Made by a program: the position numbers and the translations under genes. A stretch of DNA of 64,000 nucleotides from Candidatus Omnitrophota bacterium (GTDB lineage Bacteria; Omnitrophota; Gorgyraeia; JABMRG01), in the NCBI GenBank assembly GCA_030593065.1, contig JAUVHV010000002.1, positions 33,003 through 97,002 on the forward strand, in the 5' to 3' direction. The notes beneath the pieces are model-generated. The model was not told the origin of the DNA. It did not search any database and saw only the letters and a list, made by a program, of their open reading frames with translations. This document shows positions 20,066 through 49,819 of this stretch, piece by piece. Numbering within the stretch: position 1 is the first letter of the stretch; each line of letters starts with the position of its first letter.

Positions 20066-20067
20066 TA

Positions 20068-20859: not shown

Positions 20860-20868
20860 ATATTGCTG

Positions 20869-24527: not shown

Positions 24528-24941
24528 TTAATCCTGATAAATCTGTTCCCAGTCACTGAGTTTCTCATCAGCATTAAAGAAGAAATATATCTTTTCACCC
24601 TTAAAAAAGGTAGAGGTTGGCGGTTTATAAGCCCATCTTGAACCATTACCAGCCTTTGCTGCAGGATCACCGCACTGCTTCATAATATCATCTTTTGAGA
24701 GGCCTTCTGTTATTTCAGAGCCCTGAATAAACTCTTTTGCCTTCTGGTAATTATCACCTTCTACCCGGCGCTCCTTGGCCATCCTGTCCATACTGGCTTT
24801 TAAGCCCGTAAGCCTTCTTATCACACCAACCGCAAAGAGTGGCTTAATATGCATACCAGAAAAAACTGATAAAATTATTATAAAAACCGCTGCCTGTCTC
24901 ATATGTAAGATTATTTTATCATTATTAGCATTAATTTTCAA
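24528..24941 (-). CDS. Small secreted or lipoprotein-like hypothetical protein (BamE/SmpA-like fold possible)
   Basis: N-terminal hydrophobic segment. The C-terminus has W.Y ... FF motifs. This is a weak call. Confidence 0.4.
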   Translation of the reverse strand: MKINANNDKIILHMRQAAVFIIILSVFSGMHIKPLFAVGVIRRLTGLKASMDRMAKERRVEGDNYQKAKEFIQGSEITEGLSKDDIMKQCGDPAAKAGNGSRWAYKPPTSTFFKGEKIYFFFNADEKLSDWEQIYQD

Positions 24942-29509: not shown

Positions 29510-29701
29510 CTATAGCCTAATGATGAAAAAGACTATAAAGCTTAATAATAAAATCACTATAAAGGCCGTCGCAACATGCGAGTACCTGATATCACTTAAA
29601 AATCCTATCCTGCGGTTAAGGAACTCTCCACAATATATACACCTTAAAGCATCATCATCAAAGTTGGGTTTTTTACAATGCGGGCAGATATATTCAGCCA
29701 T
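29510..29701 (-). CDS. Small zinc-ribbon protein with a C-terminal transmembrane helix
   Basis: CPHC ... CIYC zinc-binding pairs, and a C-terminal IVILLLSFIVFFII segment. Confidence 0.55.
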   Translation of the reverse strand: MAEYICPHCKKPNFDDDALRCIYCGEFLNRRIGFLSDIRYSHVATAFIVILLLSFIVFFIIRL

Positions 29702-30413
29702 TTAATCTACTCCCCTCTTTTCTCATACCACATTTAGCACAACTTTTATCGCTAATCAGGTTTGCGTAATCGCAGTTACCGCATATCCACGTATCTCCGG
29801 AAGATTTTATCGTACTGGCCTTATTAGCGTGGTTACAATTATCACATTCTGTAAGAAGCTTACTATTCTCTGCGCCGCATTTTCTGCAAATCCAGTTATC
29901 AGGAGAAGAGGGTTTTCCGAAGCTCTTCTTATATGCCCTCTTAATGATGCGCTTCATATATATGTATAGGATAATAACTATAGCAATCGGAATCAGTATA
30001 ATAAAAATAATCTTTGAACTGATATAATAGAGATAAAGCAATAATGCTATGGAAATAATTCCCGCGCATATTTTAGCGATAATATCCTCAACGCTATCCG
30101 GCAACAGGCCTCCACCGCCAATCTCAAATATTATCAATAGTAAAAGCGCAAAACCAGATAATGTTCCAAACAGCATAAGCCATTTTTTTATAGGCAGCTG
30201 TTCCTTCTGCCGGGCTTCTTGTTCAACGTTGGGCCCATATTGGTTATGAGATATACCCGAATCTATATAATGGCCTTGCGAAAAAATAGCTGCGGGAATA
30301 ACTATGTAGCCGGGAGCTAAACTTAAAAGAATGAACAAAACCGATAAAATAGATTTTATTTTTTTCATGGACGAAAATAAATGGGGCCGCATCTCAAAGA
30401 AGTGCAGCCCCAT
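29694..30413 (-). CDS. Membrane protein with two C-terminal RanBP2-type zinc fingers
   Basis: WICRKCGAENS ... CDNC and WICGNCDYAN ... CAKCG, preceded by 3-4 transmembrane segments. The likely start is an internal Met (MKKIKSILSV). Confidence 0.6.
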   Translation of the reverse strand: MGLHFFEMRPHLFSSMKKIKSILSVLFILLSLAPGYIVIPAAIFSQGHYIDSGISHNQYGPNVEQEARQKEQLPIKKWLMLFGTLSGFALLLLIIFEIGGGGLLPDSVEDIIAKICAGIISIALLLYLYYISSKIIFIILIPIAIVIILYIYMKRIIKRAYKKSFGKPSSPDNWICRKCGAENSKLLTECDNCNHANKASTIKSSGDTWICGNCDYANLISDKSCAKCGMRKEGSRLNG

Positions 30414-31094: not shown

Positions 31095-31895
31095 CTAAAA
31101 CCTTAATATAGCACTTGCTGAAAATGCAGTCTCATCGATAAAACGGCCTTCGGCATTTATTGACAGAGAATCAAACGCCAGTACGTCAAGCCCTGCAAAT
31201 ATACCAAACTGTGATTTCGGATCAAAACTATATTCATATGATTTACCGGATACTGTAGCCGTAGCTTTACCGCTTGCATCTGAATACTTGACACCTGCGT
31301 AAGGAGAGACTGTATTAAACTGGTACGAAACGCCTATGGCGGCTTGCCATTCATTGCAATTAAATTTTTTCTCTGTAAGTTCCGGGTCTGTTGAACAATA
31401 TATCGTATCGCCTACTTTAACCTTATCTACACCCAGATCAGAACTTCTATATTTTCCATCGATACCTATACGAAGTGTGGCTTTATTACCAGCATATTTA
31501 ACATCTTTTTCATATATTACAGCCGTACCCCCTACTCCCCAGGCAAGGTCTGTTTTCGTATCCCACTCTACTCTGCTGCCGGAGATCTTATACTTCTGGG
31601 CTGCTTCCGCGCCGCCTACAAGCCCGTATACATATGCCTTGTTACCTATTACTATTCCACCTTTACCGCCATAAAAGAAATACTCTGTATCGCTTGCCTG
31701 GCTTTTCATATTACGATCAGAATTAAGATCAACCTCAGCCCCGAGAATAAAGCCAAACTTGCTATTTTCATCTTTAAATACCATGCCTTTTTTTAATGTG
31801 GCTGGAGATCCTATATTTCCTACGGGCATGGCATAAGATGAAATCGCGCCGGCTACAATGACAAAACATATAATAAATAACAATAAACGCTTCAC
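31095..31895 (-). CDS. Outer-membrane beta-barrel protein
   Basis: Signal peptide, alternating amphipathic beta-strands rich in aromatic and Gly residues, and a C-terminal Phe (ILRF). Confidence 0.6.
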   Translation of the reverse strand: MKRLLLFIICFVIVAGAISSYAMPVGNIGSPATLKKGMVFKDENSKFGFILGAEVDLNSDRNMKSQASDTEYFFYGGKGGIVIGNKAYVYGLVGGAEAAQKYKISGSRVEWDTKTDLAWGVGGTAVIYEKDVKYAGNKATLRIGIDGKYRSSDLGVDKVKVGDTIYCSTDPELTEKKFNCNEWQAAIGVSYQFNTVSPYAGVKYSDASGKATATVSGKSYEYSFDPKSQFGIFAGLDVLAFDSLSINAEGRFIDETAFSASAILRF

Positions 31896-33800: not shown

Positions 33801-34790
33801 CTACAATGCGATTGCATCCATAATATGTTGATTTATCTGAAGCTCTACAAATTCCGCTGCTTCCTTTATTGCATTTTTTATAGCTTTGGCTGAAGAGCCC
33901 CCATGTCCGATAATAGTAACACCACTTACACCAAGAAGAGGCGCACCGCCATATTCAGAGTAATCTATCTCTTTTTTCAGGGCATTAAATGCCGGCATGC
34001 TAAGAAGCGCGCCAATCTGTGTCATAATACCCTCTTTCAATTTTCTTTTTAGGAATATAGCGAGAGTATGCGCAAGTGATTCTGAAACCTTTAAGACCAC
34101 ATTACCAACAAATCCGTCACAGACTATAACATCATACTCGCCTGTGTATATATCACCGCCTTCAACGTTACCTATAAATTTTAATACGCTTGAATTGAGC
34201 AGCCGGTGAGTCTCCTTCATAAAATCTGTACCCTTGGCTTCTTCTCCCCCTACATTCAGAAGCCCTACTTTTACAACTTTCTTATTGAGCAGGTGCCTTT
34301 GCAGCGCATCACCCATAATCCCATATTGCAAAAGATGTTCCGGCTTTGGACTAATATTTGCGCCCACATCAATAAGCACACACAGATCTTTTAGGGTAGG
34401 GTATATCATGCTTATACCAGGACGATACACACCCTTTAAAAGCCCCATCCTTAATGCTACCGCGCATACAACCGCGCCTGTATTACCAGCTGATACAAAC
34501 GCGTCGACCTTACCGTCTCGTAAAAGCCTTGCTCCTACATTTATGGAAGAGTCTCTTTTTCGGCGAACACTCAATGCTGCCGGCTCATCCATACTTATGA
34601 CTTCTGAGGCATGGCACACAGATATACTTTTCGGGGCATTGACACCTTTCTTGAACAGTTCTTGTTGAATTATCGTATTATTTCCAACAAGTACAATATC
34701 ATATCCAAATTCCCGGGCAGCCATAACTGCCCCCTCTATGTTAATATAAGGCGCCTTATCACCGCCCATCGCGTCTATTGCAATACGCAT
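33801..34790 (-). CDS. plsX: Phosphate acyltransferase PlsX
   Basis: N-terminus MRIAIDAMGGD. Confidence 0.9.
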   Translation of the reverse strand: MRIAIDAMGGDKAPYINIEGAVMAAREFGYDIVLVGNNTIIQQELFKKGVNAPKSISVCHASEVISMDEPAALSVRRKRDSSINVGARLLRDGKVDAFVSAGNTGAVVCAVALRMGLLKGVYRPGISMIYPTLKDLCVLIDVGANISPKPEHLLQYGIMGDALQRHLLNKKVVKVGLLNVGGEEAKGTDFMKETHRLLNSSVLKFIGNVEGGDIYTGEYDVIVCDGFVGNVVLKVSESLAHTLAIFLKRKLKEGIMTQIGALLSMPAFNALKKEIDYSEYGGAPLLGVSGVTIIGHGGSSAKAIKNAIKEAAEFVELQINQHIMDAIAL

Positions 34791-34806: not shown

Positions 34807-35007
34807 TTACTTCTTTGGCTTTTTGGTTTTCTCTTTTTTGACTACAATCTGCCTGCCTTTATAATAACCGCATTTTGAACATAGATGATGAGGAAGAACC
34901 ACATGGCCGCAATTGGAACATTTCACAACAGACAACTCATCGAGCTTATAATGTGTGCGTCTCTTTCTTCCTCTTGCTTTTGAATGTCTTCTTTTTGGTG
35001 TGCTCAC
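34807..35007 (-). CDS. rpmF: 50S ribosomal protein L32
   Basis: RHSKARGRKRR and the CxxC ... CxxC motifs. Confidence 0.9.
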   Translation of the reverse strand: MSTPKRRHSKARGRKRRTHYKLDELSVVKCSNCGHVVLPHHLCSKCGYYKGRQIVVKKEKTKKPKK

Positions 35008-35035: not shown

Positions 35036-35335
35036 TCATTTTAACCTTAAAGCTAAATCAGTAAGGGTGCGAACCAGAAAAGCCTGAATAAATATTAAAC
35101 AAAGAACTGCTATAATAGGTGATATATCAACAGCCCAAAACTGCATCTTGAAGATCTTTCTTATAGGGGCAAGAATGGGGTCTGTTACCCGCTGTAAAAA
35201 TTGCACAATAGGGTTGAATGGATCGGGATTTACCCAGCTAACCAGTGACCTGATAATGATAATCCAGTAAAGAAGCGTGATTATAATATCAAGAAGGCGC
35301 GCTATGCTTAATAATAGATTCCCAAAAATAAACAT
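35036..35335 (-). CDS. yggT: YggT-family membrane protein
   Basis: YggT signature WVNPDP ... PILAPIR. Confidence 0.8.
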   Translation of the reverse strand: MFIFGNLLLSIARLLDIIITLLYWIIIIRSLVSWVNPDPFNPIVQFLQRVTDPILAPIRKIFKMQFWAVDISPIIAVLCLIFIQAFLVRTLTDLALRLK

Positions 35336-35351: not shown

Positions 35352-36155
35352 TTACCTGCAAGAAAGCTGCTTTGACCTTTTAGCGGCTGCTGTCATCGCA
35401 ATTTTTACAGTTGTTGCAAATTCTTTTTTCTTAAAAATTTCTAATGCCGCTTCCGTTGTCCCGCCTTCTGATGTCACGTTTTTACGCAATACTGCGGGGT
35501 TCTCTGCCAAAGAATACTGTAAAAGGCTTGCGCCAAATGCTGTCTGGGTAACAAGCTTTAATGCTGTATCCTTTTTAAGGCCCAGGGCTTGAGCCCCATC
35601 CACCATAGCTTCCATAAGCAGAAAAAAATACGCCGGCCCGCTTCCTGACACAGCAGTTACAGCATCCATATCTTTTTCATTAAGCAGTATTGTTTCTCCG
35701 ACACAGGCATAGATGCTTTCCGTTATATCTATGTCAGATTTTTTAAGTCCGCTTCCGGCGGCAATCGCGGTCATTGCAAAACCTATTAACGCGGGTGTAT
35801 TAGGCATCACTCTTACCACTCTTTTCGCGCCTGTTTTCTTTTTTATAAAATCTATTGTAACACCCGCGGCTTTTGATATAATAAGCTTCGTTCTGGCAAC
35901 TTCTGCTATCTCACTAAGCGCAGATCCCATATCCTGGGGCTTGAGAGCCAGAATAATTATATCAGATTTTTTAACCGCCTCAATATTAGAAGCGGTAACC
36001 TTCACGTGATAATTCTTTTTTATAAATCTCAATCGTGAATCGCGATTATCAGAAATAATAATACGCGATCTTGTAAATAATTTTTTAGAGACAAGGCCCT
36101 TTAATAACGCCTCCCCCATATTGCCACAACCTATGATTGCTATTTTCTTATTCAC
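35352..36155 (-). CDS. proC: Pyrroline-5-carboxylate reductase
   Basis: N-terminal NAD-binding motif IAIIGCGNMGEAL. Confidence 0.85.
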   Translation of the reverse strand: MNKKIAIIGCGNMGEALLKGLVSKKLFTRSRIIISDNRDSRLRFIKKNYHVKVTASNIEAVKKSDIIILALKPQDMGSALSEIAEVARTKLIISKAAGVTIDFIKKKTGAKRVVRVMPNTPALIGFAMTAIAAGSGLKKSDIDITESIYACVGETILLNEKDMDAVTAVSGSGPAYFFLLMEAMVDGAQALGLKKDTALKLVTQTAFGASLLQYSLAENPAVLRKNVTSEGGTTEAALEIFKKKEFATTVKIAMTAAAKRSKQLSCR

Positions 36156-36215: not shown

Positions 36216-36908
36216 TCAGCCTTTGGCTGAAAATATAGCAGTCCCGATTCGTACAAAAGTAGCGCCTTCTTCTATTGCTGTTTCAAAATCCTGAGTCATA
36301 CCCATCGAAAGCTCTCTGACATCTGTATTTGGGATATCTTCTTTTAATAGATTATCCCTTAATATACACAGGTCTCTGAAGTACGGCCTTGCAGCTTCTG
36401 AGGTTTCCGCGAAAGGTGCCATTGTCATAAGGCCTATTATATGCAAATTAGGCAGTAGAGATACTTCTTTAATAAAATTAGGGGCATCACCCGGGCTGAT
36501 ACCATACTTTGCCTCTTCTCCGGAAACATTGACCTCTACGAAACAGTCTATTCGCTTGTTTATTGCTTTAAGGTGCTTATCCAATTCAACAGCAAGCCTT
36601 AAGCTATCCAGAGAATGAATTACATCAAAGACCTTTAGGAACTTCTTGAGCTTATTGACCTGAAGATGGCCTATCATATGCCATCTTAAATCATTAGATA
36701 GTCTACCCAGGTAATTAAACTTTGAAAGAGCGTCATTGACCCTGTTTTCACCGATATCAGTTATGCCCAGGGCCAAAGCTTCTCTTATTTCAGTTGAGCT
36801 AATACTTTTTGTAACACAGACTAAAGTAATCTCTTGGGGGTTTCGCCCCGCCCTTTTGGCTGAACTTTCTATTCTCTGCTTAACTTGAGCGAGATTTTGT
36901 GCAATCAT
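36216..36908 (-). CDS. yggS: PLP-homeostasis protein (YggS/YlmE family)
   Basis: VCVTKSIS ... ENRVND ... the lysine of the alanine-racemase-like fold. Confidence 0.85.
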   Translation of the reverse strand: MIAQNLAQVKQRIESSAKRAGRNPQEITLVCVTKSISSTEIREALALGITDIGENRVNDALSKFNYLGRLSNDLRWHMIGHLQVNKLKKFLKVFDVIHSLDSLRLAVELDKHLKAINKRIDCFVEVNVSGEEAKYGISPGDAPNFIKEVSLLPNLHIIGLMTMAPFAETSEAARPYFRDLCILRDNLLKEDIPNTDVRELSMGMTQDFETAIEEGATFVRIGTAIFSAKG

Positions 36909-36976
36909 TTTGGATACTTTAGCATAATATAATACTCAAGTCAATTAAATTTAAATCGAAACTGTTTCTAGTATTA

Positions 36977-38206
36977 TTAAAAATAATCAGTATATAAACG
37001 GCGAGTATAGTCTAAGAGCACCATTGCCCAATTTTTAGGGCTCATCTTAAATATAGACTTCTTGGACTGCTTAACTATGCTGCCCATCTTAAGTAAGCCG
37101 ACAGCAGTAGCATAAATATGGCTCGGAAGCGGTTTCGGCGCTGAACCCAGGTTCATTATGTGGCCTATCTTGACAGGCAGGTTAAAAATATTCTCCGCCA
37201 ACTCGAGAACGCCATCCATTATCACAGGCTGCCCGCAGACTAACGCGCCGCTTGAAATACTATCAATATATCCTGAGATATCGAGCTCTTTCTTAATTAT
37301 ATTAAAAAGGTTAGTATATTCTGAAATCAATATACCCCTTAATTTAGCGCGCGATATGGTTATTTTTCGTGATACCACAGTTACATTTATCTTCTCACCT
37401 TTTTTGATATCCTCTATAGTGCTGTTTTCTATCTTTAGCTTTTCTGCTATACCTTCTGGGAGAGAGAGCTTCTCTGCAATCTTCTTGGTTATATTATCGC
37501 CGCCCAAAGGTAAAACTTTTAAAAAAACCGGCCTTGATTCAGAAAAAACAAGTATCTCTGTTATGTCAGCGCCAATATCAATGAAAACCATGCCTAAGTT
37601 TTTTTCATGCTGTGAAACAGAAGAAGCTGATGTTGCCAAAGGCGAAATAATATAACCTTCTACACCTATACCTGACTGGTTAATAGCTTTTTTCAGATTA
37701 TCAATAATAGATATTTTTGCGGTAATAAGAAATAATTCTGTCTCAAGTTTTATGCCGAACATGCCTACAGGGTTTATAATCCCTTTTTCGCCATCAACAA
37801 CAAAACCTTTTCTAGCGGAATAGACAATATCCCGTTCATATGGCATGTGTATCGCTTTTGCGTTTGATATTACTCTATCCAGATCATGCTTTGTGATCTC
37901 ATTGTCCCTGTCAGATATAACTACCTCACCATGCGATGGTATACCTTTTAAATGGGTACCTGAAATATTAAAAAAAGCGGATTGAACCTTTCTCCCGCTC
38001 GTCTCTTCTGCCTTGTAAACCGCATCTGATATAGCCTCTGAAAGAACCTTTATATCTGCTACTACGCCTTTTTTCAGACAGTCATGATGGCATATACCAT
38101 AACCTAAAACATCAAGTATGCCTTTTGATATTGGAAGAGCCGCTATCAGGCAGCATACCTTGGATGCGCCTATATCAATTGCTGTTATAAGATTTTCCTT
38201 CTTCAT
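36977..38206 (-). CDS. ftsA: Cell division protein FtsA
   Basis: Actin-fold N-terminus IDIGASKV, sitting in dcw-cluster context. Confidence 0.9.
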   Translation of the reverse strand: MKKENLITAIDIGASKVCCLIAALPISKGILDVLGYGICHHDCLKKGVVADIKVLSEAISDAVYKAEETSGRKVQSAFFNISGTHLKGIPSHGEVVISDRDNEITKHDLDRVISNAKAIHMPYERDIVYSARKGFVVDGEKGIINPVGMFGIKLETELFLITAKISIIDNLKKAINQSGIGVEGYIISPLATSASSVSQHEKNLGMVFIDIGADITEILVFSESRPVFLKVLPLGGDNITKKIAEKLSLPEGIAEKLKIENSTIEDIKKGEKINVTVVSRKITISRAKLRGILISEYTNLFNIIKKELDISGYIDSISSGALVCGQPVIMDGVLELAENIFNLPVKIGHIMNLGSAPKPLPSHIYATAVGLLKMGSIVKQSKKSIFKMSPKNWAMVLLDYTRRLYTDYF

Positions 38207-38213: not shown

Positions 38214-39029
38214 TCACCTGGGTATCACAACAACATCCTCAAACCTAAGATCTATTACTCTGGCTTTCTTATTCTTTGATGCTAACTCATCTATTATCTC
38301 TTTAAGAAGAGGCTCTTTCTCCTTGAAACTGAATTCACCAAGTTCGACCTTTGTTCTGTCTTTTAAAAACAGAACAGGGTTGTTCTTATCATATATATTT
38401 ATCTTTACAACATCCTGGTATTGGCTCGGAAAATTGCTATCCTTAATCTCTTTGATTATCGCAATAGCTCTTTTCAACCCATCTTTATATGACTGCTTAG
38501 TGGGTGCGAGTTTTTGCGCGGAGATCCTGATGCCTGTTACTATAGTCAGATTAGGCTCCTTAAACTTTTGTGGATTAGGCAGAATAGTCGCGTCATCACA
38601 TACCATGTAATAATAGCCTGAACCGACCTGGCATATGGGTTTGCGTACCTTATAGGTAACTGACAATGTATCCGGCAAAAACCTCTGAACAATTATGTTT
38701 TTAAGCTCCGGGCAGGCCTTTTCTATCGTTGTTTGGCATATCTTTATATCTGCACTAAAAATATTATCACCATTTTTTGACTGCAGTCTCTTTTGGATAA
38801 CTAATGAGGCGCCTGGGGATTCGTTACTTAAAATTTCTATTTTTTTTATCTTAAAGTAATTTGAATTGAACAAAAGTGACATTGTTATCTTTCCCACAAA
38901 TAATACTGCCGCGATAATTAATATATATGGAAATGCTTTATATATCATAGCAACGGCTGGCAATAATACTCCATTACGCGGAAGATGCTTTTTTCTTCTT
39001 GTAACTCTCTTTTTCTTTAGTTTTGCCAT
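38214..39029 (-). CDS. ftsQ: Cell division protein FtsQ (POTRA)
   Basis: Single transmembrane segment, POTRA domain, and position between ddl and ftsA. Confidence 0.75.
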   Translation of the reverse strand: MAKLKKKRVTRRKKHLPRNGVLLPAVAMIYKAFPYILIIAAVLFVGKITMSLLFNSNYFKIKKIEILSNESPGASLVIQKRLQSKNGDNIFSADIKICQTTIEKACPELKNIIVQRFLPDTLSVTYKVRKPICQVGSGYYYMVCDDATILPNPQKFKEPNLTIVTGIRISAQKLAPTKQSYKDGLKRAIAIIKEIKDSNFPSQYQDVVKINIYDKNNPVLFLKDRTKVELGEFSFKEKEPLLKEIIDELASKNKKARVIDLRFEDVVVIPR

Positions 39030-39050: not shown

Positions 39051-40007
39051 TTATAATCTTTTTTTTAAAGCGCACCTTATCATCTCAACGCACATTTGCC
39101 CAAAATCTATTCCTGCGGCTTTCGCCGCTCTTGGAAGAAGGCTGGATGAGGTTAACCCCGGAATAGTATTTACCTCAAGCACTGTCAGAGAATTATCTCT
39201 TTTATTAATAAGCATATCTACCCTTGAAAATGAGCCGCACCCTAACGCCCGGTGCGCTAAAAGGGCAAGTTGCTGCACTGTTTTAGTTATTCTTTGCGAT
39301 AAAATTGCCGGCACAACATATTCACTCATACCATCTGTATATTTAGCCTTAAAATTATAAAACTTCTCTTTTGGCTTTATATTTATCACCGGGAGTGGTT
39401 TCTCGTTCAAAATACCTACGGTTATATCATCACCCTCTATATATTTCTCCTCTATAATTTCATCATCATATTTAAATGCCTCATCCATAGCTGGGATTAT
39501 CATATCACGCGCCTGAACAAGGCTCATACCTATGCTCGAACCTTCTTTAGATGGCTTCACCACAAATGGTAATGAAAGATGCTGCAAGTTATTCCCCTTA
39601 GAAAAGAGTTGGCGCTTACTTTTTTTGAGCACAATATAATCGGGAGTAGGTATATTCTGCTGTTTAAATATCTCTTTTGAGGCTATCTTGTTTAAAGCAA
39701 TCCGGCTTGCCTCAGGGCCTGAACCAATATAAGGGATATCCATATCATCAAGCGCTCTCTGCACCCCGCCATCCTCTCCAAATCTGCCGTGCAACGCGAT
39801 AAATGCCACGTCTATTTTGGATATTGTGACTTCTTTCTTAAAAGAACCCGCATCTTTCACATCTATCTTTACTGCATCATACCCTAAAGAAAGAAACGCA
39901 TCATATACAGTATTACCGCTTTTTATGGAGATATCCCGCTCACTTGATAGGCCTCCAAACAGGATACCTATTCTGCCCGCTCTCTCTATGTCCGATACTC
40001 TTCCCAT
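39051..40007 (-). CDS. ddl: D-alanine--D-alanine ligase
   Basis: ATP-grasp fold and dcw-cluster context. Confidence 0.9.
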   Translation of the reverse strand: MGRVSDIERAGRIGILFGGLSSERDISIKSGNTVYDAFLSLGYDAVKIDVKDAGSFKKEVTISKIDVAFIALHGRFGEDGGVQRALDDMDIPYIGSGPEASRIALNKIASKEIFKQQNIPTPDYIVLKKSKRQLFSKGNNLQHLSLPFVVKPSKEGSSIGMSLVQARDMIIPAMDEAFKYDDEIIEEKYIEGDDITVGILNEKPLPVINIKPKEKFYNFKAKYTDGMSEYVVPAILSQRITKTVQQLALLAHRALGCGSFSRVDMLINKRDNSLTVLEVNTIPGLTSSSLLPRAAKAAGIDFGQMCVEMIRCALKKRL

Positions 40008-40025: not shown

Positions 40026-40937
40026 TTACCAGCTTATTACCTCTAACTCCTGTTCAAGGACTACGCCTTCTTCCATTTCTACTTTTTTCTTTATAAACTG
40101 AATTAGATTTAATATATCCTTTGCGGTAGCCTTACCCTTATTAATAATAAAGTTCGCGTGCTTGCATGAGACTACAGCATCTCCTATTCTAGCCCCTTTT
40201 AAACCGCATCTATCTATCAGCCGGCCCGCGCTAATTTTTTTAGTCTTCGGATTCTTGAATACGCATCCAGCGCTCGGAGCAGTATAATCCTGATTCAAAA
40301 GCCTTTCTTTGATACACCTGTTTATTTTCTTTTGCGCAGTTGCTCTTTTACATCTCTTAAGCCCAAAAGTAGCTGATACAATTATTAAACCTTTTATGCT
40401 GCTTAAACGATACTTAAAACCCGCCTCTTGCGGCATTAAGATTATAAGGTTACCTGATCTATCAATGCACCGGATATCTTTTAATATATCCGATATTTCA
40501 CTTTGTTGCGCGCCTGCGTTCTGAATAATAGCTCCACCAATAGTTCCTGGTATGCCTACCAAAAATTCAGCGCCGCCTAAACCATTTTTTTCGGCAATAT
40601 TACAAAATTTGTTAAGGCTCAGGCCCGCGCCACAGGTTATATTATTTCCGCAGACAGCCACCTTCTTAAAAAATGGCGAGGTAAGTTTTACAAATATTTT
40701 TCGTGTGCCTTTATCAGGTACGATTATATTACTGCCATTTCCTAACGGCTGTAAAGATATCTTATCTCTTTTACATAAAAGAACCGATTCTTTCAGGTCT
40801 CTTATCCGCTTTGGAATATAAAGGCCTTTGGCAGGCCCGCCTACACGCATGGTAACATACGGCTTCATTACAACATTGGGTATAAATCTGCCGTCTAGAT
40901 TATGAAAAACTTTTTTGGATTGAGTTTTTTTATACAT
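40026..40937 (-). CDS. murB: UDP-N-acetylenolpyruvoylglucosamine reductase
   Basis: FAD-binding GGG.N motif and cluster context. Confidence 0.85.
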   Translation of the reverse strand: MYKKTQSKKVFHNLDGRFIPNVVMKPYVTMRVGGPAKGLYIPKRIRDLKESVLLCKRDKISLQPLGNGSNIIVPDKGTRKIFVKLTSPFFKKVAVCGNNITCGAGLSLNKFCNIAEKNGLGGAEFLVGIPGTIGGAIIQNAGAQQSEISDILKDIRCIDRSGNLIILMPQEAGFKYRLSSIKGLIIVSATFGLKRCKRATAQKKINRCIKERLLNQDYTAPSAGCVFKNPKTKKISAGRLIDRCGLKGARIGDAVVSCKHANFIINKGKATAKDILNLIQFIKKKVEMEEGVVLEQELEVISW

Positions 40938-40941: not shown

Positions 40942-42330
40942 CTATACAGGCTCTTTTTCTTTTCTTTCTTTTAGACGCGTAACAAATTCGCCTGAAAGCC
41001 TTCCGATATCACCGGCTCCTAAAAAGAGCAGTAAATCCCCGGGCCTTACAAAACTTATAAGATAATCCAAAAGCCTCTCTTTTACTATATAATTCGCATT
41101 TATTCTTTTCATCTTTAATATTTCATTATATATATTCATAGAAGTAACACCGAATATAGGCTTCTCATTGGCAGCATATATATCCATTAATATCAGATAA
41201 TCTGTGTCGTAAAATGCCTGCGCAAATTCTTTTTTAAGAAATTTAGTCCTTGTAAAACGGTGCGGTTGAAATATTGATATGAGGCGTTTGCATCTCATAT
41301 TACGCGCTACCTTAAGCGTTGCCTTTATCTCTGTGGGGTGATGGGCATAATCATCTATTACCGTTATATCACATATGCGGGCCTTTATCTGAAAACGGCG
41401 TTCCGCACCCTTATACTGATATATAGCGGATCTTATTGTATCCGGTGCGAGCCCTATCTCCATGCCTGTCAAAATTGCGGCCATGCTGTTTAAAATATTG
41501 TGTTCACCCGGCACGCGCAGCCTGAATAGGCCAATATCATTACCGTCATAGATACAGTTAAATTCAGATTCCATGCCTTCCAACTTTATCTTGTTACAGT
41601 AAAGATTGTTCTTTTTTGATTTTCCATACCTTAATACCCTTGCCTTCAGATGCCTTGTAATCTTCTTTATATGCGGGTCTCCGCCCCAGCAGACAACAGC
41701 TCCTTCGGGCTTGATATTATTCATGAACTTTAAATACGCGGCTCTTATCTGTTCTATATTATCATAATAATCAAGATGCTCGAGATCGATGTTTGTAATT
41801 ATACCGTAGTCAGGATTAAGATGGAGAAAAGAACCGTCAGATTCATCCGCCTCAACAACAAAATGTTCGCCATCACCAATAAAAGCATTGCCATTAAGAT
41901 ACGGCACCAACGCACCTACTATGCCGCTTGGCATAAGGTTTGCTTCTTTTAACATTGTCGATATCATTGAAGATGTGGTTGTCTTTCCATGTGCTCCTGT
42001 AACCGCAACACATTTTTTCCCTTCCGCAAGATAGGTTAAAAATTCTCCCCTTTTAAATACCGGTATATTTTTCCTGTTTGCTTCTGAAAGTTCCGGATTA
42101 TGGCTTAAGACAGCTGAAGAATAGACTACCATATCGATATCCCTGATATTCTCCCATCTGTGGCCTATCTCTATCTTTGCGCCCTCACTCTTTAACTTAT
42201 CGATAATATTACTCGATTTTATATCAGAACCGCTTATCTTATGCCCCTTTTTAAGGCAGAGCCATGCTATACCGCTCATACCTATACCACCTATACCTAT
42301 AAAATGTATTTTTTTTGAGCTACTCAGCAT
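40942..42330 (-). CDS. murC: UDP-N-acetylmuramate--L-alanine ligase
   Basis: HFIGIGGIGMS and GTNGKTTT motifs. Confidence 0.9.
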   Translation of the reverse strand: MLSSSKKIHFIGIGGIGMSGIAWLCLKKGHKISGSDIKSSNIIDKLKSEGAKIEIGHRWENIRDIDMVVYSSAVLSHNPELSEANRKNIPVFKRGEFLTYLAEGKKCVAVTGAHGKTTTSSMISTMLKEANLMPSGIVGALVPYLNGNAFIGDGEHFVVEADESDGSFLHLNPDYGIITNIDLEHLDYYDNIEQIRAAYLKFMNNIKPEGAVVCWGGDPHIKKITRHLKARVLRYGKSKKNNLYCNKIKLEGMESEFNCIYDGNDIGLFRLRVPGEHNILNSMAAILTGMEIGLAPDTIRSAIYQYKGAERRFQIKARICDITVIDDYAHHPTEIKATLKVARNMRCKRLISIFQPHRFTRTKFLKKEFAQAFYDTDYLILMDIYAANEKPIFGVTSMNIYNEILKMKRINANYIVKERLLDYLISFVRPGDLLLFLGAGDIGRLSGEFVTRLKERKEKEPV

Positions 42331-43423
42331 TTAAAAGCCCCATTACCGCGCCTGCCAGATCTTTGGCAGCATCGGGTTTTGAAAATATCCGCATATTTGT
42401 AACCATCCTTCGCATCCCATCTTCATCACTGATAATAGAGAATATTTCATGTTTAAGTTTTTTTGGCGATAATCTGCTCTCCTTTAATATTACTGCCGCT
42501 CCTTCCCTGGCAATAAAAGCGGCATTATCTCTCTGATGGTTGCCAGCCCATGGATACGGTATGAATAAGGCAGGTATACCAAACAATGCTATCTCTGAGA
42601 TTGTAGCAGCGCCTGCACGAGAAATAATCATATCAGAAGCTTTATAAGAAAAAGCCATCTTATCGTAAAAACCTCTTACCCAGTGCATTACCTTATTTAC
42701 TCTATACGCTTGCTCTACCATCTCACAGTCTTTATGCCCTGCTATATGAATTATCTGAATAGAATCTTTTTTTTCGTCACTAAGAAGTTTTACCATATCT
42801 ATCATTGCCTTGTTAATCGCCGAAGCGCCTCTGCTTCCTCCGAGTACAAGAAGAGTTTTTCTCTCTTTGGAAAATCTAAAAGCTTTAAGTGCTTCATCAT
42901 TAGTAATCATCTTAAAGCCATCCAGCAGTTCCTGCCTTATAGGGGTTCCGGTTAAGGTACATTTAGCATCCTTCTTTATCAGCGGGCTATTAAAACTCAA
43001 AGCAACCCTGTCAGCCATATTGAACAACATCCTGTTTGCCCGGCCCAAGAAAACATTCTGCTCATGTATCAGCATCTTTATGCCCATTGAACTCGCTGTC
43101 TGCATCACTGGGCCTGATATATATGCGCCGAAACCAATCGCTATATCAGGGTTTATCTGTGCCACAATCGGTTCTGCGTTTAATCGCGAAGTAATAAGCT
43201 TTATAATAAAAACAAGCCACTTGGCTGAAACCCCATAAGGCATCTTAGGAACAGCAAGAACCATAAAATCAAAACCTGCTTTCCTTATCAGTTCTTTATT
43301 TACCATGCTATCATCTACAACAAATACAGAGTCCGGGCAGCCTTTTCTTTTAAGCTCCTGGGCAAGCGCGATAGCAGGAAATATATGGCCGCCTGTGCCG
43401 CCACATGCTATAAGTATTCTCAT
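42320..43423 (-). CDS. murG: UDP-GlcNAc:undecaprenyl-PP-MurNAc-pentapeptide GlcNAc transferase
   Basis: GGTGGH N-terminal motif. Confidence 0.9.
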   Translation of the reverse strand: MRILIACGGTGGHIFPAIALAQELKRKGCPDSVFVVDDSMVNKELIRKAGFDFMVLAVPKMPYGVSAKWLVFIIKLITSRLNAEPIVAQINPDIAIGFGAYISGPVMQTASSMGIKMLIHEQNVFLGRANRMLFNMADRVALSFNSPLIKKDAKCTLTGTPIRQELLDGFKMITNDEALKAFRFSKERKTLLVLGGSRGASAINKAMIDMVKLLSDEKKDSIQIIHIAGHKDCEMVEQAYRVNKVMHWVRGFYDKMAFSYKASDMIISRAGAATISEIALFGIPALFIPYPWAGNHQRDNAAFIAREGAAVILKESRLSPKKLKHEIFSIISDEDGMRRMVTNMRIFSKPDAAKDLAGAVMGLLNAE

Positions 43424-43424: not shown

Positions 43425-44510
43425 TTACCTTCTATGCTTTGCTATATTCAATAAAAGTCCTACACTTGCTAAACTATATACAAGCGAGGTGCCTCCATAA
43501 CTTATAAATGGTAAAGGCAGCCCCTTTGTAGGTATTAAACCTGTAACTGCCGCGATATTTATTATAACCTGTAAAGCCAGCATTGTAACTAAGCCAAAAG
43601 CAAGAAATTGACCAAATAGATCTCTTGCGGAATATGCTATCCTGAAACCCAACCATATAAATATCGCGAAAAGTATCACAATACCTAAAGTACCGATAAG
43701 TCCCAGCTCCTCACCAATTATAGAAAATATAAAATCTGTATGCGCCTCAGGCAGATAAAAAAGTTTCTGCTTGGAATGCGCAAGCCCTACACCAAAAAAA
43801 CCGCCGGTTCCCATAGCTATCATAGATTGTATTATCTGAAAACCCGACCCTCTCGGGTCGTTCCACGGATTCCAAAAAGCCATTACCCGTTTTATGCGAT
43901 AGGGCTTCATAACTATAAGCCCTATCAATGCAAGCAGGCCCGGTACAATCATAACAAATAGTTGTTTTATATCAACACCTGCGATAAATGCCATGATAAT
44001 TATCAAAAAAGCCAATGCTACAGCGGTTCCAAGATCAGGCTCCAGTAATATAAGTAAAATGCATACACCCAATGCTATCATAAGAGGTAAAAAGCCGTAT
44101 AAAAAATCTTTTATCTCTGACTGCTTGCGAGCAAGTAGATCGGCTGTATAAAAAACAAGTGCCATCTTTGCTATTTCTGAAGGTTGAAAATTGATTACCC
44201 CTAAACTTATCCATCGCCTTGCGCCGCCCGCACTTCGGCCCATACCCGGTATAAATACCGCTATAAGCAGGAATATGGAAAAGAGCAGAAACGGCTTTGT
44301 AAAATTCTTAAGTTTGCCGTAGTCAAAACTCATCAATAAGGCCGCGGCCATAAGCCCTACTAACACAAAAACAAGGTGCCGTTTTACAAAATAGGCGCTA
44401 CTGCCATAGGACTCATAAGCAAAGGCAGAGCTTGAAGAGTATATCATCACAGTACCTATGGCAAGCAAAAATGCTGTAACTAAAAAAAGGTTTATACGTA
44501 TCTGTCTCAT
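43425..44510 (-). CDS. ftsW: SEDS-family peptidoglycan glycosyltransferase FtsW
   Basis: About 10 transmembrane helices, SEDS motifs, and cluster context. Confidence 0.85.
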   Translation of the reverse strand: MRQIRINLFLVTAFLLAIGTVMIYSSSSAFAYESYGSSAYFVKRHLVFVLVGLMAAALLMSFDYGKLKNFTKPFLLFSIFLLIAVFIPGMGRSAGGARRWISLGVINFQPSEIAKMALVFYTADLLARKQSEIKDFLYGFLPLMIALGVCILLILLEPDLGTAVALAFLIIIMAFIAGVDIKQLFVMIVPGLLALIGLIVMKPYRIKRVMAFWNPWNDPRGSGFQIIQSMIAMGTGGFFGVGLAHSKQKLFYLPEAHTDFIFSIIGEELGLIGTLGIVILFAIFIWLGFRIAYSARDLFGQFLAFGLVTMLALQVIINIAAVTGLIPTKGLPLPFISYGGTSLVYSLASVGLLLNIAKHRR

Positions 44511-44532: not shown

Positions 44533-45885
44533 TCACACAGCTTGTAATCTCAATACTGCCTGTTTAAATGCGCTCCCGCGATCCTTATAATTTGAAAACA
44601 TATCAAAACTTGCGCACATAGGAGAAAGCAAAACTGTATCACCGCTTGCAGCCCTTTCTCTGGATATAGCAACTGCCTCATCTATAGAAGACGCCTCAAA
44701 CATATTCGCGGCACCCGCAAGATCGGCTCTTATCTTTTCCTTTGCCTCTCCAATCAGGATTATAGACTTTACTTTATCCCTGACCAGCTCTTTTATAACC
44801 TTATAATCGCTGCCTTTATCCCTTCCACCCGCTATAAGAATAACATTTTCAGCACATGAGTTTAAAGCAGCTTTACAAGCGTCAACAGTCGTTGCCTTAG
44901 AATCGTTTATATACCTTACACCATCTATAGTAGAAACTTGCTGAAAACGATGGTCCAGGCCTTTAAACCTGGTAAGCGCGCCCACAATATCTTTCAATCC
45001 TGCTCCCGCAAGATACGAACATAAGGTGCAGGCAAGTATATTTGACACATTATGCCTGCCTGGTAATTCTATATCGCTTATAGAACATATCTTCTTCTCA
45101 TTTGCATCAGTATTTAGAATAAGATCACCGCCTTTAAGATAAGCGCCCCTGACTTTTTTCTTTACACTGTAATAATATACCCTGGAACCGAGTTCATGTT
45201 CTAGAGCCATTATCTTTTTGTCATCGTAATTTAAGATACAAAAATCACTGCTATCCTGATTTTTGTATATATTTTTTTTAGACGCGAAATAATCGATAAA
45301 ATTGCCATGCCAATCAAAATGGTTCTGTGTAATATTTGATATAAGAGCAATCTTTGGCTTAAACTTATCTATTCTCTTAAGCTGAAAAGAGCTTACCTCC
45401 ACAACTGCGGGTTGGCCTTCTCTTATATCAAGCACGGCCTCTGAAAAAGCTTTACCGATATTACCACAAACAACCGGCCTTTTACCCGATGCCTCAAGCA
45501 TCAAGCCTATAAGTGTAACAATAGTGCTTTTTCCATTGGTACCTGTAACTGCTATAATAGGCCCTTTGCAAAACCAGGATGCCAGCTCGATTTCACTGAT
45601 TATAGGTATGGACCTGCTTTCCGCGATATCGAGAATATCAGAACCATCCTTAACACCAGGGCTTACCACAATTAGATCCGCGGCTTTTACAAAACCGGGC
45701 GTATACTTGCCGAGCTCTACCCTGATACCCTTTGTTTTAAGTTTTTTTGCAACCTGCGAAAGTTCCTGAGTAGTGTGTGAATCTATTGCGTAAACTATAG
45801 CGCCCTGCTTCTTAAGAAGCAGGGAAGCTGCCCTGCCGCTTATTCCGATACCGACTACTATTATCTTTTTACCATCTAATATCAT
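44533..45885 (-). CDS. murD: UDP-N-acetylmuramoylalanine--D-glutamate ligase
   Basis: GTNGKST motif. Confidence 0.9.
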   Translation of the reverse strand: MILDGKKIIVVGIGISGRAASLLLKKQGAIVYAIDSHTTQELSQVAKKLKTKGIRVELGKYTPGFVKAADLIVVSPGVKDGSDILDIAESRSIPIISEIELASWFCKGPIIAVTGTNGKSTIVTLIGLMLEASGKRPVVCGNIGKAFSEAVLDIREGQPAVVEVSSFQLKRIDKFKPKIALISNITQNHFDWHGNFIDYFASKKNIYKNQDSSDFCILNYDDKKIMALEHELGSRVYYYSVKKKVRGAYLKGGDLILNTDANEKKICSISDIELPGRHNVSNILACTLCSYLAGAGLKDIVGALTRFKGLDHRFQQVSTIDGVRYINDSKATTVDACKAALNSCAENVILIAGGRDKGSDYKVIKELVRDKVKSIILIGEAKEKIRADLAGAANMFEASSIDEAVAISRERAASGDTVLLSPMCASFDMFSNYKDRGSAFKQAVLRLQAV

Positions 45886-45913: not shown

Positions 45914-47005
45914 TTATCTTAGTTTCAGAGTCATAAGAGTAATGAGCACCAATATAGCAGCTACTATCCAAAAGCGTACAACTATTTTTGACTCGGGCCA
46001 TCCTTTCATCTCTAAATGATGGTGAAATGGCGCGCACAAAAATACCCTCTGGCGCTTTATTTTAAAAATTAATACCTGCAATATTACAGATATTGCTTCA
46101 AATACAAATATCCCGCCTACTATAAGAAGCAGCATCTCCTTCTTTATACAGCAGGCAACAACACCTATGCCCCCTCCCAAAGCGAGAGACCCTACATCAC
46201 CCATAAATACAGTGGCGGGGCATGAGTTAAACCAGAGAAAGCCCAACCCCGCACCTATCATTGCAGCGCAATATATAGCAAGCTCCCCGGTTCCTGGGAT
46301 ATAATTGATAAATAAGTAATTTGAAAGCTGGCTATTTCCAACAATATAGCTGATAACTGTATAAGCTAAGGCAACCATTACCATGCACCCTATAGCCAAT
46401 CCGTCAAGCCCATCTGTCAAATTTACCGCGTTAGATGTACCTACAATCACAAACATAACAAAGAATATATAAAATATTCCGATATTGAAGGCTATATTTT
46501 TAAAAAAAGGAAAATATATTTCGCTTCCTACATTAGAGTCCGCGAAAAGCACAATTCCTATTATCAATCCAAGTATAATCTGTCCTAGAAATTTGGTCTT
46601 CTTGCTAAGCCCGTTGCTTTTCTTTGCAACAAGCTTTATATAATCATCGATAAAACCAACAATGCCAAGCCATAATGTTGCGAATATCGTTAAGAGTATA
46701 TAACGATTATCCAATCGCGCCCAGAGAATGGTAGCAATCAATATAGATATCAATATAATCAGCCCACCCATTGTCGGGGTACCTTCCTTATCCTTATGCA
46801 TAGGGTATATACCCGGAACCTCTTCCCTGGAGCGTATACGCTCACCGATATTAAGGCTCTTAAGCAGCTTTATAACATATGGGCCAAGAATAATACTTAA
46901 CAAAAACGCGGTAATAATAGCGCCAACCGCCCTAAATGTTATATAACGGAATACATTAAATCCAAAAAATACCTCTTTTAGTGAACAGAATAGGTGGTAA
47001 AGCAA
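45914..47005 (-). CDS. murY: Phospho-N-acetylmuramoyl-pentapeptide transferase
   Basis: MraY transmembrane fold with NAVNLTDGLDGLA motif. The conventional symbol is mraY. Confidence 0.85.
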   Translation of the reverse strand: MLYHLFCSLKEVFFGFNVFRYITFRAVGAIITAFLLSIILGPYVIKLLKSLNIGERIRSREEVPGIYPMHKDKEGTPTMGGLIILISILIATILWARLDNRYILLTIFATLWLGIVGFIDDYIKLVAKKSNGLSKKTKFLGQIILGLIIGIVLFADSNVGSEIYFPFFKNIAFNIGIFYIFFVMFVIVGTSNAVNLTDGLDGLAIGCMVMVALAYTVISYIVGNSQLSNYLFINYIPGTGELAIYCAAMIGAGLGFLWFNSCPATVFMGDVGSLALGGGIGVVACCIKKEMLLLIVGGIFVFEAISVILQVLIFKIKRQRVFLCAPFHHHLEMKGWPESKIVVRFWIVAAILVLITLMTLKLR

Positions 47006-48339
47006 TCTACGACCTCCTCCATCTTCATACTTCTGGAACCTTTTATCAGGACTGTATCGCCCTTAGTTAGTATCTGCCTTAAAAAGGGTTGGATATCCTT
47101 CTTCTCTGTAAATACCTTTATATGGTTTTTATCCATACCATTATCGATTGCGCCTTTTCCGATAAAGAGGGCCTTGTCGCCAAATATAATAAGAAAATCC
47201 GCTGCTTTTGCCTGAGCCAGGAAACTTCCGCAGTCATAGTGAAATTTTTCTGAATTTTCACCAAGTTCATGCATATCAGCACAGCAGATAATCTTTTTCC
47301 CCTTAGATTTATATTCTTTTAACGAAGTAACCGCACATTCGAATGAGATAGGATTGGAATTATACGTATCATTTATTATGGTAAAACCGTCGCAATTCAC
47401 AGCCTCCATTCGCATTGAGGTACCTTCAAAACCCGCAAAGACATTCCCTGCCTTGCTTATATCCATAAAAAGGGATGCTGCTGTAATCGCGGCCAAAGCA
47501 TTATAAACATTATGTACCCCCAAAAGCGGTAGCTTGATGAGCTTTCCATTAAGAAAGAATTCCATGCCTTCGGCAGTCTGTGTTATGTTTTCTGCTTTAA
47601 AATCCGCTCTCTTATTTTTGATACCAAAATCTATAATCCTTATATCTTCATAATTCTCTTTCAAGAGCATCTCGTCATCGCAGTTGCGTATCCAGACACC
47701 TCTTTTATCGAGAGATTTTACCATAGCCATCTTTTCTCTAAGGACTCCCTCTCTGTTTCTTAAACCCTTAAGATGCGCGAGGCCTATATTCGTAGTTATA
47801 ACAACGGTAGGCGCAAGAACCGCGCTGTTATACTCTATCTCACCGATAAAACTTGTTCCCACCTCTATTACAGCTATCTGTTCATTTCTTAATCTCAGAA
47901 GAGTGCTTGCGACACCAATCTTATTATTGAGATTATCTTGAGTCTTCAAAACAGTAAGCTTCTTTCCCAGTATAAAGGCAAGCATATCCTTTGTTGCTGT
48001 CTTGCCATTTGACCCTACGACACCTATTACGGGAATATGGAATTTTTTTCTGTGTGCCTTTGCAAGGTCACTCAAAGCCTTTAATGTATTCTCAACCCTT
48101 ATTACAGGGATCTGCGCAGAGACCTCATCCTGTTTTTCGGTTACTGCCGCGAAAGCTCCCCTTTTAACAGCTTCCCCAATAAATTTTGCCCCATCACTTT
48201 TTTCTCCTTTTAAGGCAAGGAAAAGCTCGTTCTTCTTTATGCTGCGCGAATCAGTGGATATCGCGTCTATCTTCACGCTAGTATCACAATATATATTCTC
48301 TGCAGAAGTAATCCTGATTATATCTTTTATTGTAAACAC
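46978..48339 (-). CDS. murF: UDP-MurNAc-tripeptide--D-Ala-D-Ala ligase
   Basis: GSNGKT motif and cluster context. Confidence 0.9.
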   Translation of the reverse strand: MFTIKDIIRITSAENIYCDTSVKIDAISTDSRSIKKNELFLALKGEKSDGAKFIGEAVKRGAFAAVTEKQDEVSAQIPVIRVENTLKALSDLAKAHRKKFHIPVIGVVGSNGKTATKDMLAFILGKKLTVLKTQDNLNNKIGVASTLLRLRNEQIAVIEVGTSFIGEIEYNSAVLAPTVVITTNIGLAHLKGLRNREGVLREKMAMVKSLDKRGVWIRNCDDEMLLKENYEDIRIIDFGIKNKRADFKAENITQTAEGMEFFLNGKLIKLPLLGVHNVYNALAAITAASLFMDISKAGNVFAGFEGTSMRMEAVNCDGFTIINDTYNSNPISFECAVTSLKEYKSKGKKIICCADMHELGENSEKFHYDCGSFLAQAKAADFLIIFGDKALFIGKGAIDNGMDKNHIKVFTEKKDIQPFLRQILTKGDTVLIKGSRSMKMEEVVDCFTTYSVH

Positions 48340-48352: not shown

Positions 48353-49819
48353 TTAAACCTTATTCTGCTCTAATACCTCTTCCACAATCTTTTTATCATC
48401 AAACGGAATTGTAGTATCCTTGAATATCTGATAGCTCTCATGCCCTTTCCCCGCTATTAATACCATGTCATTGCTTTTCACTATGCTAATCGCGTATTCA
48501 ATAGCCTTTTTGCGGTCAATACAAACCTTATAATTCTTGAAATCTTTTGGCAAGCCCTGCACTACATCATCGATTATTTTTTCCGGATCTTCGCTGCGGG
48601 GGTTATCACTTGTTATTACTACGTAATCTGCAAATTCCGCGGCTACTTTAGCCATTCCGGGACGTTTCTTTCTGTCTCTATCGCCGCCACAACCAAAAAC
48701 TACTATAATAACTCCTTTGGCAATCTTTTTAAGTGTACTCAGCACATTTAAAAGCGCGTCATCAGTGTGCGCGTAATCGATAAAAACCGAAAACCCTTTA
48801 TTGTCACAAACCTCTACTCGCTGAAGCCTGCCCGGGACTCCTTTAAAACTTCTTATCGCTTCCTGTATATCAGATGGTTTCAAACCCGTTGAATAGGCAA
48901 AGGATATAGCAGCCAGGATATTATATATATTATAAGTACCGATAAGATCTGTCTCTATATCCAAAACCTGTTTAGGTGTTTCAACTTTAAAAGAGGCGCC
49001 TTTACAAGATGTGCCTATATCAAACGCTCTTACATCCGATTTATTGTTGATACCATATGTCAGCACCCGGTTCTTATGCTCCTGGATAAGGAGCCTGCCG
49101 TAATTATCGTCGCTGTTTATTATCGCTACCGCGTCTTCTTTTAACATACCAAAAAGCTTGCTCTTAGCACTGAAATATTCTTTCATATCCTTATGGTAAT
49201 CAAGGTGTTCGCTTGTCAAGTTTGTAAATATAGCCTTATTAAATTCTATAGCATCGACGCGGTTTTGATCAAGCGCATGGCTTGAAACTTCCATAATGCA
49301 GTTCGTAATACCTGACATCTCCATTTCACGCAGGAACATCTGAAGCATAATAGGTGAAGGTGTTGTATTTACCGCAGGTATAAGCCTGTTCCCGATTCGA
49401 TAATTAATAGTACCTATCATACCGCAATTACGGCCCGAATATTGCATAATAGCAGCTATCAGGTAGAGTGTGGTTGTCTTTCCATTTGTTCCCGTAATAC
49501 CCGTAGTCTCTACCCGCTGTGATGGGTGCGAATAAAAATTAGCGGCTATTAAAGCGCATGCCTTTCTTATATCTTCAACAATTACTTTTGTTATACTTTT
49601 ATATGTTACAAAATCCTTCTCTGCTGCAACAGATACTGCTCCGCGCTCTATCGCCTCATCTATAAAATCATAACCATTATAATTCTTACCTTCTATGGCA
49701 AAGAAAAGCCCGGAATGCTTTATTTGTTTGGAATTATAAGATATATTCTCGATATCAAGACGCCTCTCTCCCCTTATCATAACAGAGCCTACTCCTTTAA
49801 GCAGGTGATTAAGCTTCAT
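48353..49819 (-). CDS. murE: UDP-MurNAc-L-Ala-D-Glu--2,6-diaminopimelate ligase
   Basis: GTNGKTT motif and DNPR motif. Confidence 0.9.
   Translation of the reverse strand: MKLNHLLKGVGSVMIRGERRLDIENISYNSKQIKHSGLFFAIEGKNYNGYDFIDEAIERGAVSVAAEKDFVTYKSITKVIVEDIRKACALIAANFYSHPSQRVETTGITGTNGKTTTLYLIAAIMQYSGRNCGMIGTINYRIGNRLIPAVNTTPSPIMLQMFLREMEMSGITNCIMEVSSHALDQNRVDAIEFNKAIFTNLTSEHLDYHKDMKEYFSAKSKLFGMLKEDAVAIINSDDNYGRLLIQEHKNRVLTYGINNKSDVRAFDIGTSCKGASFKVETPKQVLDIETDLIGTYNIYNILAAISFAYSTGLKPSDIQEAIRSFKGVPGRLQRVEVCDNKGFSVFIDYAHTDDALLNVLSTLKKIAKGVIIVVFGCGGDRDRKKRPGMAKVAAEFADYVVITSDNPRSEDPEKIIDDVVQGLPKDFKNYKVCIDRKKAIEYAISIVKSNDMVLIAGKGHESYQIFKDTTIPFDDKKIVEEVLEQNKV

Follow-up and report, generated by a model that had tools for sequence, protein, structure and literature searches.

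Lineages of the Planctomycetes-Verrucomicrobia-Chlamydiae (PVC) group include bacteria known to be without the tubulin homologue FtsZ. Chlamydiae lack FtsZ and keep FtsQ, FtsL, FtsI, FtsW and the Mur genes, but they have lost FtsA as well, and their division relies on MreB. In Planctomycetota (Phycisphaerae, Planctomycetales and anammox bacteria) ftsZ has also been lost while part or all of the other genes of the dcw (cell-wall and division) cluster are kept; here, apart from a few exceptions, ftsA and ftsB are lost too, and the cluster has undergone erosion or fragmentation. The stretch of DNA analysed in this work, hereafter the window, comprises 64,000 nucleotides of the contig JAUVHV010000002.1 (positions 33,003 to 97,002, forward strand; assembly GCA_030593065.1) of a Candidatus Omnitrophota bacterium. 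It carries a dcw cluster with the same order from mraZ to ftsA as the canonical cluster of Gracilicutes (...ftsQ-ftsA-ftsZ), without the terminal ftsZ. It is highly probable that ftsZ was lost early in Omnitrophota, that the dcw cluster of the phylum ends at ftsA and that its members divide independently of FtsZ, most likely by means of FtsA. Few bacteria of free-living or epibiotic habit make peptidoglycan and yet divide in the absence of FtsZ. Among the PVC lineages, Omnitrophota alone have FtsA but no FtsZ, and therefore represent a natural experiment on the role of FtsA when its canonical partner is lacking.

The state found in the window (ftsZ absent, ftsA present) has been described for the same phylum. 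According to Supplementary Note 1 of Seymour et al. (2023), a study of 421 genomes, Omnitrophota have no ftsZ homologue save for one, and this exception shares 89% identity with the protein of an archaeon that has not been cultured. The legend of Fig. 5b in Pende et al. (2021) gives Omnitrophica as FtsZ-less alongside Planctomycetes and Chlamydiae, FtsA being missing too in the latter two only, and Supplementary Data 2 of the same work lists FtsZ as absent in four of five Omnitrophica genomes, with FtsA in three of those four. The ftsZ question in Omnitrophota had been left open by Rivas-Marin et al. (2016), and neither FtsZ nor FtsA is mentioned in the main text of Seymour et al. (2023) or in a 2026 preprint on complete genomes of the phylum (bioRxiv 10.64898/2026.06.07.730766). 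The absence of ftsZ together with the retention of FtsA is already known, and not new, as both have been published, although solely in the legend of a figure, in one table and in one supplementary note. The accessible parts of Seymour et al. (2023) and Pende et al. (2021) give presence and absence only; the junction's gene order and the erosion of FtsA's pocket for FtsZ come from the analysis of the window. No mention of this erosion or of the gene order ftsA/promoter/yggS-proC-yggT was met with in the accessible portions of the literature found. Pocket erosion and a conserved promoter at the junction are modest additions to the published picture, and they open a genuine loss of ftsZ to testing.

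The gene calls are based on a six-frame listing of open reading frames (ORFs) and on Pfam and NCBIfam profile searches. The genes mraZ-rsmH-ftsL-ftsI-murE-murF-mraY-murD-ftsW-murG-murC-murB-ddl-ftsQ-ftsA lie contiguously and in canonical order on the minus strand, from 53430 down to 36977 (Table 1), ftsL being assigned by its position since the putative ftsL ORF had no family match in Pfam or NCBIfam. Both the ORF listing and the profile searches bear out the original prediction that the dcw cluster is intact from mraZ to ftsA, and the profile searches equally confirm that it stops at ftsA without ftsZ and is succeeded by yggS-proC-yggT. The gene after ftsA is yggS, separated from it by a gap that had been put at 69 bp and that measures 68 bp from the coordinates of the ftsA stop codon (36977-36979) and the yggS ATG (36906-36908). 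No Pfam Tubulin or FtsZ_C match was obtained for any scanned ORF of the 64-kb window, and a tblastn search of the window and of the related loci L001-L007 with an Escherichia coli FtsZ query gave a best E-value of 3.6.

Relatives have been examined up to 10 kb on either side of ftsA. The ftsA-yggS junction is identical in the independently assembled Logan contig SRR18936876 (L001), and therefore it is not a mis-assembly of one data set. In L005, whose FtsA is 75% identical to that of the window, ftsA is followed by yggS-proC-yggT-plsX; in L006 (62% identity) by yggS-yggT-plsX, without proC; in L007 (59%) by yggS-proC-yggT; in L008-L010 (46%) by proC-yggT-rpmF-plsX, without yggS; and in L013 (41%) by proC, inside which the contig ends. 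None of the Omnitrophota loci that reach past ftsA (L001, L005-L010 and L013) has ftsZ after it. As ftsZ is missing after ftsA in all these loci, the ftsZ-less end of the cluster is a trait of the whole sampled phylum.

An artefact of assembly or binning, in which a mis-join at the end of ftsA removed ftsZ, could draw on the contigs of three close relatives (L002-L004), which stop 29-440 bp past ftsA (L002 at 29 bp). This explanation is hardly credible, since the same junction is present in the independent Logan assembly and in relatives from different samples and sources, and since the tail of the L003 contig runs into the conserved yggS promoter. The ftsZ-less junction of the window is real and no assembly artefact. 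The possibility that the breaks in L002-L004 hide a variable gene was also rejected: L003 continues into the yggS promoter, and the stretches after ftsA do not encode FtsZ in any of the three, as determined by tblastn and by reading of the sequences. The break in L004 coincides with an ORF beginning past ftsA (at about 11400-11667, MELYNNTTKWKKYKHLNEVERYKIEGYLEAK...), which may encode an IS30-type transposase. The 3' end of ftsA is, in these relatives, a hot spot of insertions and assembly breaks.

Outside the phylum the junction is different. The outgroup sample consisted of the three nearest non-Omnitrophota FtsA loci (L011, L015 and L016), sister PVC phyla being left out, and in all three a gene with Tubulin and FtsZ_C domains adjoins ftsA and is followed by unrelated genes. 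The gene order in these loci gives no support to yggS and yggT as right-hand remnants of an ftsZ locus, so the original idea that ylmE and ylmG are neighbours kept after a precise excision of ftsZ is not demonstrated. The companion remark that sepF often lies between ftsA and ylmE does not apply either, as sepF is not expected in Gracilicutes, according to the available part of Pende et al. (2021). A search with the L011 FtsZ returned no Omnitrophota names among the best 120 of 8000 matches, a result that is uninformative either way.

The placement of the window follows from its FtsA, which belongs to a tight family of homologues with identities between 100% and 41%, the next ones being at most 37% identical and belonging to other phyla, with Aminicenantales and Deltaproteobacteria among the names. 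All source-named members of the family (64-41% identity) are Candidatus Omnitrophica or Omnitrophota. When GTDB representatives were scanned with FtsA, five metagenome-assembled genomes (MAGs) recorded as 'uncultured Planctomycetia' (86-62% identity) and one Candidatus Omnitrophota MAG (L007, 59%) were recovered; the former name, carried by the closest MAGs, is judged a coarse label because Planctomycetia are without ftsA. On these sequence grounds the window belongs to Candidatus Omnitrophota, a phylum of the PVC group. A loss of the PVC type, as in Planctomycetes and Chlamydiae, had been proposed beforehand; the PVC group stands, and the lineage is Omnitrophota instead of those two. An ORF of at least 2716 amino acids (1-8148, minus strand), which runs off the start of the window and has as its sole Pfam matches tetratricopeptide (TPR) repeats at about residues 1784-2053, fits Omnitrophota, a phylum reported to have very long proteins.

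The C-terminal tail of FtsZ has been placed at subdomain 2B of E. coli FtsA, near residues 234-245 and 294-304, in accordance with a genetic screen by Pichoff and Lutkenhaus (PMC10769210). An alignment of 30 Omnitrophota FtsAs, 23 outgroup FtsAs and E. coli FtsA has been analysed, with Staphylococcus aureus FtsA as a further comparison. The residue D242 (E. coli numbering), conserved in 100% of the outgroup, is replaced by K, R, A, Q or V in the 30 Omnitrophota proteins, and P299 (91% of the outgroup) is variable in them. The position of R300 (100%) is occupied by E in 20 of the 30 and by A, G, L or S in the remainder, and that of E303 (100%) by K, N, S or R, with E kept in a single protein. 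S. aureus FtsA has the equivalents of D242, R300 and E303, and alanine at the P299 position. The FtsA of the window does not have the conserved pocket for the FtsZ C-terminal peptide. As background to these positions, we assume that the exchange R300E in E. coli FtsA abolishes FtsZ binding, and that R301 and E304 of Thermotoga maritima FtsA presumably form salt bridges with FtsZ.

Omnitrophota have lost 22 of the 96 alignment columns whose conservation in the outgroup reaches 87% or more, namely 5 of 9 in the pocket windows and 17 of 87 in the rest of the alignment (Fisher p=0.027). Overall, both sets show the same diversity (mean pairwise identity 0.54 in Omnitrophota and 0.53 in the outgroup), and outside the pocket site their entropies are 1.27 and 1.24 bits, respectively. 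A more telling result came from a scan, in 11-residue windows and without presupposing any site, of the excess of Omnitrophota variability over the outgroup. The highest-ranking segment was E. coli 294-304 (+0.98 bits), followed by 240-250 (+0.80 bits) and 270-282 (+0.77 bits); the first two coincide with the reported contact regions of the FtsZ tail in subdomain 2B, and the third is judged to lie in subdomain 2B too. The change looks like relaxed constraint and not like a new conserved pocket, because the substitutions vary by Omnitrophota sub-lineage.

The original prediction had left the choice between loss and relocation of ftsZ, and it is supported, with loss favoured by the phylum literature and by the lost pocket residues of FtsA. 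An ftsZ that had merely moved to another place in the genome could have escaped searches that covered the 64 kb of the window and, in relatives, at most 10 kb on each side of ftsA, and a 2025 PVC survey does put Omnitrophota among the phyla with conserved dcw genes. Nevertheless, the phylum-wide marker survey, as given in the available supplementary text, contains no native ftsZ, and a survey with hidden Markov models (HMMs) is without FtsZ in four of five Omnitrophica proteomes, according to its accessible tables. Furthermore, the FtsZ-binding residues of FtsA are gone and their region is the most relaxed of the protein, which is unexpected with FtsZ as a partner; the loss of these residues therefore favours an ancient, genuine loss, and relocation is highly unlikely.

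The identity of the FtsA protein itself has also been considered, as the gene might no longer serve division and might encode a PilM-like or another actin-fold protein. Its TIGR01174 score is about 60% of the canonical one (274.9 bits, where an outgroup FtsA reaches 468.3), and weak PilM and MreB matches were obtained too. However, this score exceeds the equivalog cut-off of 175.85, and the protein carries the FtsA-specific SHS2/1C insert (PF02491 SHS2_FTSA, 77.6 bits, residues 83-162). An AlphaFold2 model had a mean confidence (predicted local distance difference test, pLDDT) of 89.2 and a predicted template-modelling score (pTM) of 0.85. In a Foldseek search of the PDB with this model the top 19 matches were all FtsA, the best five being proteobacterial (template-modelling score, TM, 0.82-0.92; root-mean-square deviation 2.0-2.8 Å), and the TM to the T. 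maritima complex of FtsA with the FtsZ peptide was 0.74-0.83. Structural matches to FtsA (TM 0.83-0.91) lie far above those to PilM (0.56-0.66) and MreB (about 0.5). The model shows the full FtsA fold, including the 1C/SHS2 subdomain, as predicted for the window protein. The gene follows ftsQ and closes the dcw cluster at its 3' end, a position kept across the phylum, and a role outside division is very improbable. As judged from the aligned proteins, FtsA is kept under purifying selection in Omnitrophota.

The C-terminal tail of FtsA (...RRLYTDYF) is conserved across the phylum and is modelled, at low confidence, as a helix of residues 390-408. The amphipathicity expected of a membrane-targeting helix is clear in other Omnitrophota but not significant in the window protein, where the hydrophobic moment of the tail (0.40) is no higher than that of shuffled tails; the value is 0.53 in P0046, reached by a fraction of 0.007 of the shuffles, and 0.59 in an outgroup FtsA. 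The phosphate-2 motif (residues 210-216) reads DIGADIT in the window and DIGAD(I/L/M)T throughout Omnitrophota, not DIGGGT. A dead ATP site was considered and rejected, as the ATP-binding FtsA of S. aureus has DIGEDVT; DIGADIT is therefore a recurrent variant and not a loss of the nucleotide site.

The favoured explanation, an early loss of ftsZ followed by FtsZ-independent division, would comprise the following steps. The gene would have disappeared at the base of Omnitrophota or close to it, and it would be truly absent from the source genome, not relocated. FtsA has been retained while the charged pocket of subdomain 2B for the FtsZ C-terminal peptide has drifted, and membrane-bound FtsA would most likely organise or activate the septal peptidoglycan synthase FtsQ/FtsL/FtsI/FtsW encoded in the same operon. 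Several points weigh against this explanation. The search for ftsZ covered 64 kb, and absence from the genome as a whole would follow from the phylum-level literature and the FtsA signature. The genome OLB16, labelled Omnitrophica, has ftsA-ftsZ and is the sole one with both genes in the accessible data of Pende et al. (2021), and Henriques et al. (2025) call the dcw genes of Omnitrophota 'highly conserved' without singling out ftsZ. In addition, the Fisher test shows a modest enrichment of the pocket windows in lost columns, a very divergent protein of the tubulin superfamily would escape surveys with marker HMMs, and the FtsA-centred mechanism is inference only.

The replacement of FtsZ by a divergent tubulin-like or another cytomotive protein, encoded elsewhere and missed by standard models, is connected with the last but one of these points, as marker-gene HMM surveys catch canonical FtsZ only. 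Proteins without a family match are encoded in the window (29694-30413 and 24528-24941), besides the giant TPR protein. Such a replacement is nonetheless unlikely, given that nothing tubulin-like was found in the 64 kb by Pfam or tblastn searches and that the examined relatives have no dcw-linked candidate.

A stronger form of the favoured explanation is an 'actin-only' divisome, in which FtsA would run septal synthesis by FtsQ/FtsL/FtsI/FtsW without any tubulin homologue after the basal loss of FtsZ, the pocket having decayed under continued constraint on the rest of the protein. This proposal is tentative, its chances being put at slightly short of even. If true, it would be a third FtsZ-independent solution in the PVC group, besides the MreB-based division of Chlamydiae and planctomycetal budding, and the loss of ftsZ could be dated by the decay of the pocket as a marker in the sequence. 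The window provides a clean, contiguous example of the ftsZ-less cluster, and the erosion of the FtsA pocket a signature of independence from FtsZ that is simple and can be tested in sequences.

The 68-bp spacer that occupies the canonical site of ftsZ contains no terminator-like site and carries a sigma-70-like promoter for yggS, whose -10 element ends 7 nt upstream of the ATG. In an alignment, this promoter is near-invariant across the window, L001, L003, L005, L006 and L007, whereas the flanking spacer is unconserved and the YggS proteins of the relatives that share it are just 54-67% identical. The distance from the ftsA stop codon to the promoter ranges from none in L006 to about 30 bp in the window and about 220 bp in L003 (11228-11452). 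From these data, we infer that yggS-proC-yggT forms a separate transcription unit with its own promoter, and the position of the -10 element suggests that its mRNA would be nearly leaderless, since only 7 nt separate this element from the ATG. A proC start at 36119, downstream of that of the longest ORF, is implied by the Logan gene call (255 amino acids in L001). The genes rpmF and plsX begin a fatty-acid synthesis cluster in which fabH and fabD come after plsX.

Table 1. Coordinates of the dcw cluster, the ftsA-yggS junction and the genes downstream of it in the window.
Feature	Position	Strand	Evidence or remark
mraZ	52993-53430	minus	PF02381 MraZ, 131.6 bits; opens dcw cluster
rsmH (mraW)	51913-52791	minus	PF01795, 327 bits
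putative ftsL, 124 aa	51537-51911	minus	position only (between rsmH and ftsI); hydrophobic N-terminus
ftsI (PBP3-type transpeptidase)	49809-51503	minus	PF00905 + PF03717
murE	48353-49819	minus	expected Pfam domains
murF	46978-48339	minus	expected Pfam domains
mraY	45914-47005	minus	expected Pfam domains
murD	44533-45885	minus	expected Pfam domains
ftsW	43425-44510	minus	expected Pfam domains
murG	42320-43423	minus	expected Pfam domains
murC	40942-42330	minus	expected Pfam domains
murB	40026-40937	minus	expected Pfam domains
ddl	39051-40007	minus	expected Pfam domains
ftsQ	38214-39029	minus	PF08478 POTRA_1, 29.6 bits vs cut-off 23 (weak, above cut-off)
ftsA	36977-38206	minus	PF14450 + PF02491; TIGR01174 274.9 bits; closes cluster
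ftsA-yggS spacer, 68 bp	36909-36976	minus	canonical ftsZ site; sequence read directly
yggS promoter, sigma-70-like	36916-36944	minus	TTGACT, 17 bp, TG-extended TAAAGT; consensus scan
yggS (ylmE), pyridoxal phosphate (PLP)-binding protein	36216-36908	minus	TIGR00044 191.8 bits; PF01168
proC (longest ORF)	35352-36155	minus	PF14748 + PF03807
yggT (ylmG)	35036-35335	minus	PF02325, 68.3 bits
rpmF	34807-35007	minus	66-aa L32-like ORF; syntenic L008 gene annotated PF01783
plsX	33801-34790	minus	PF02504, 343 bits

Other features of the window have been recorded. After fabD, a 266-aa protein (31095-31895, minus strand) has a sole match, of 37 residues and 47.5 bits, to PF01308, the family of the Chlamydia major outer membrane protein; it is kept after fabD in L001, with the same Pfam match, and apparently in L005, with an ORF of equal length, and may be an outer-membrane protein of PVC type. 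Directly downstream of fabF, which belongs to the fab cluster, the region 18872-22023 (minus strand) encodes an acyl-CoA dehydrogenase, EtfB and a ferredoxin-domain EtfA, which look like an electron-bifurcating module of the Bcd/Etf type. A riboflavin block made up of ribBA, ribH, a PHP-domain gene, ribD and riboflavin synthase is led by a flavin mononucleotide (FMN) riboswitch (13186-13303, minus strand, 100.6 bits) directly upstream of ribBA (11912-13201).

Beyond the opposite end of the dcw cluster, an RNase P RNA of class A (55158-55618, minus strand, 143 bits) overlaps the first 55 nt or so of the longest ORF of an M48 peptidase (54323-55213); because of this overlap, an ATG further downstream is the probable start of the peptidase gene. 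An RNase H-like gene (RVT_3/RNase H, 55646-56155, minus strand) overlaps by 56 nt the end of a gene for a CT398-like protein with coiled-coil and zinc-ribbon regions (56100-56831), and a tRNA-Met (CAT) is located at 56916-56992.

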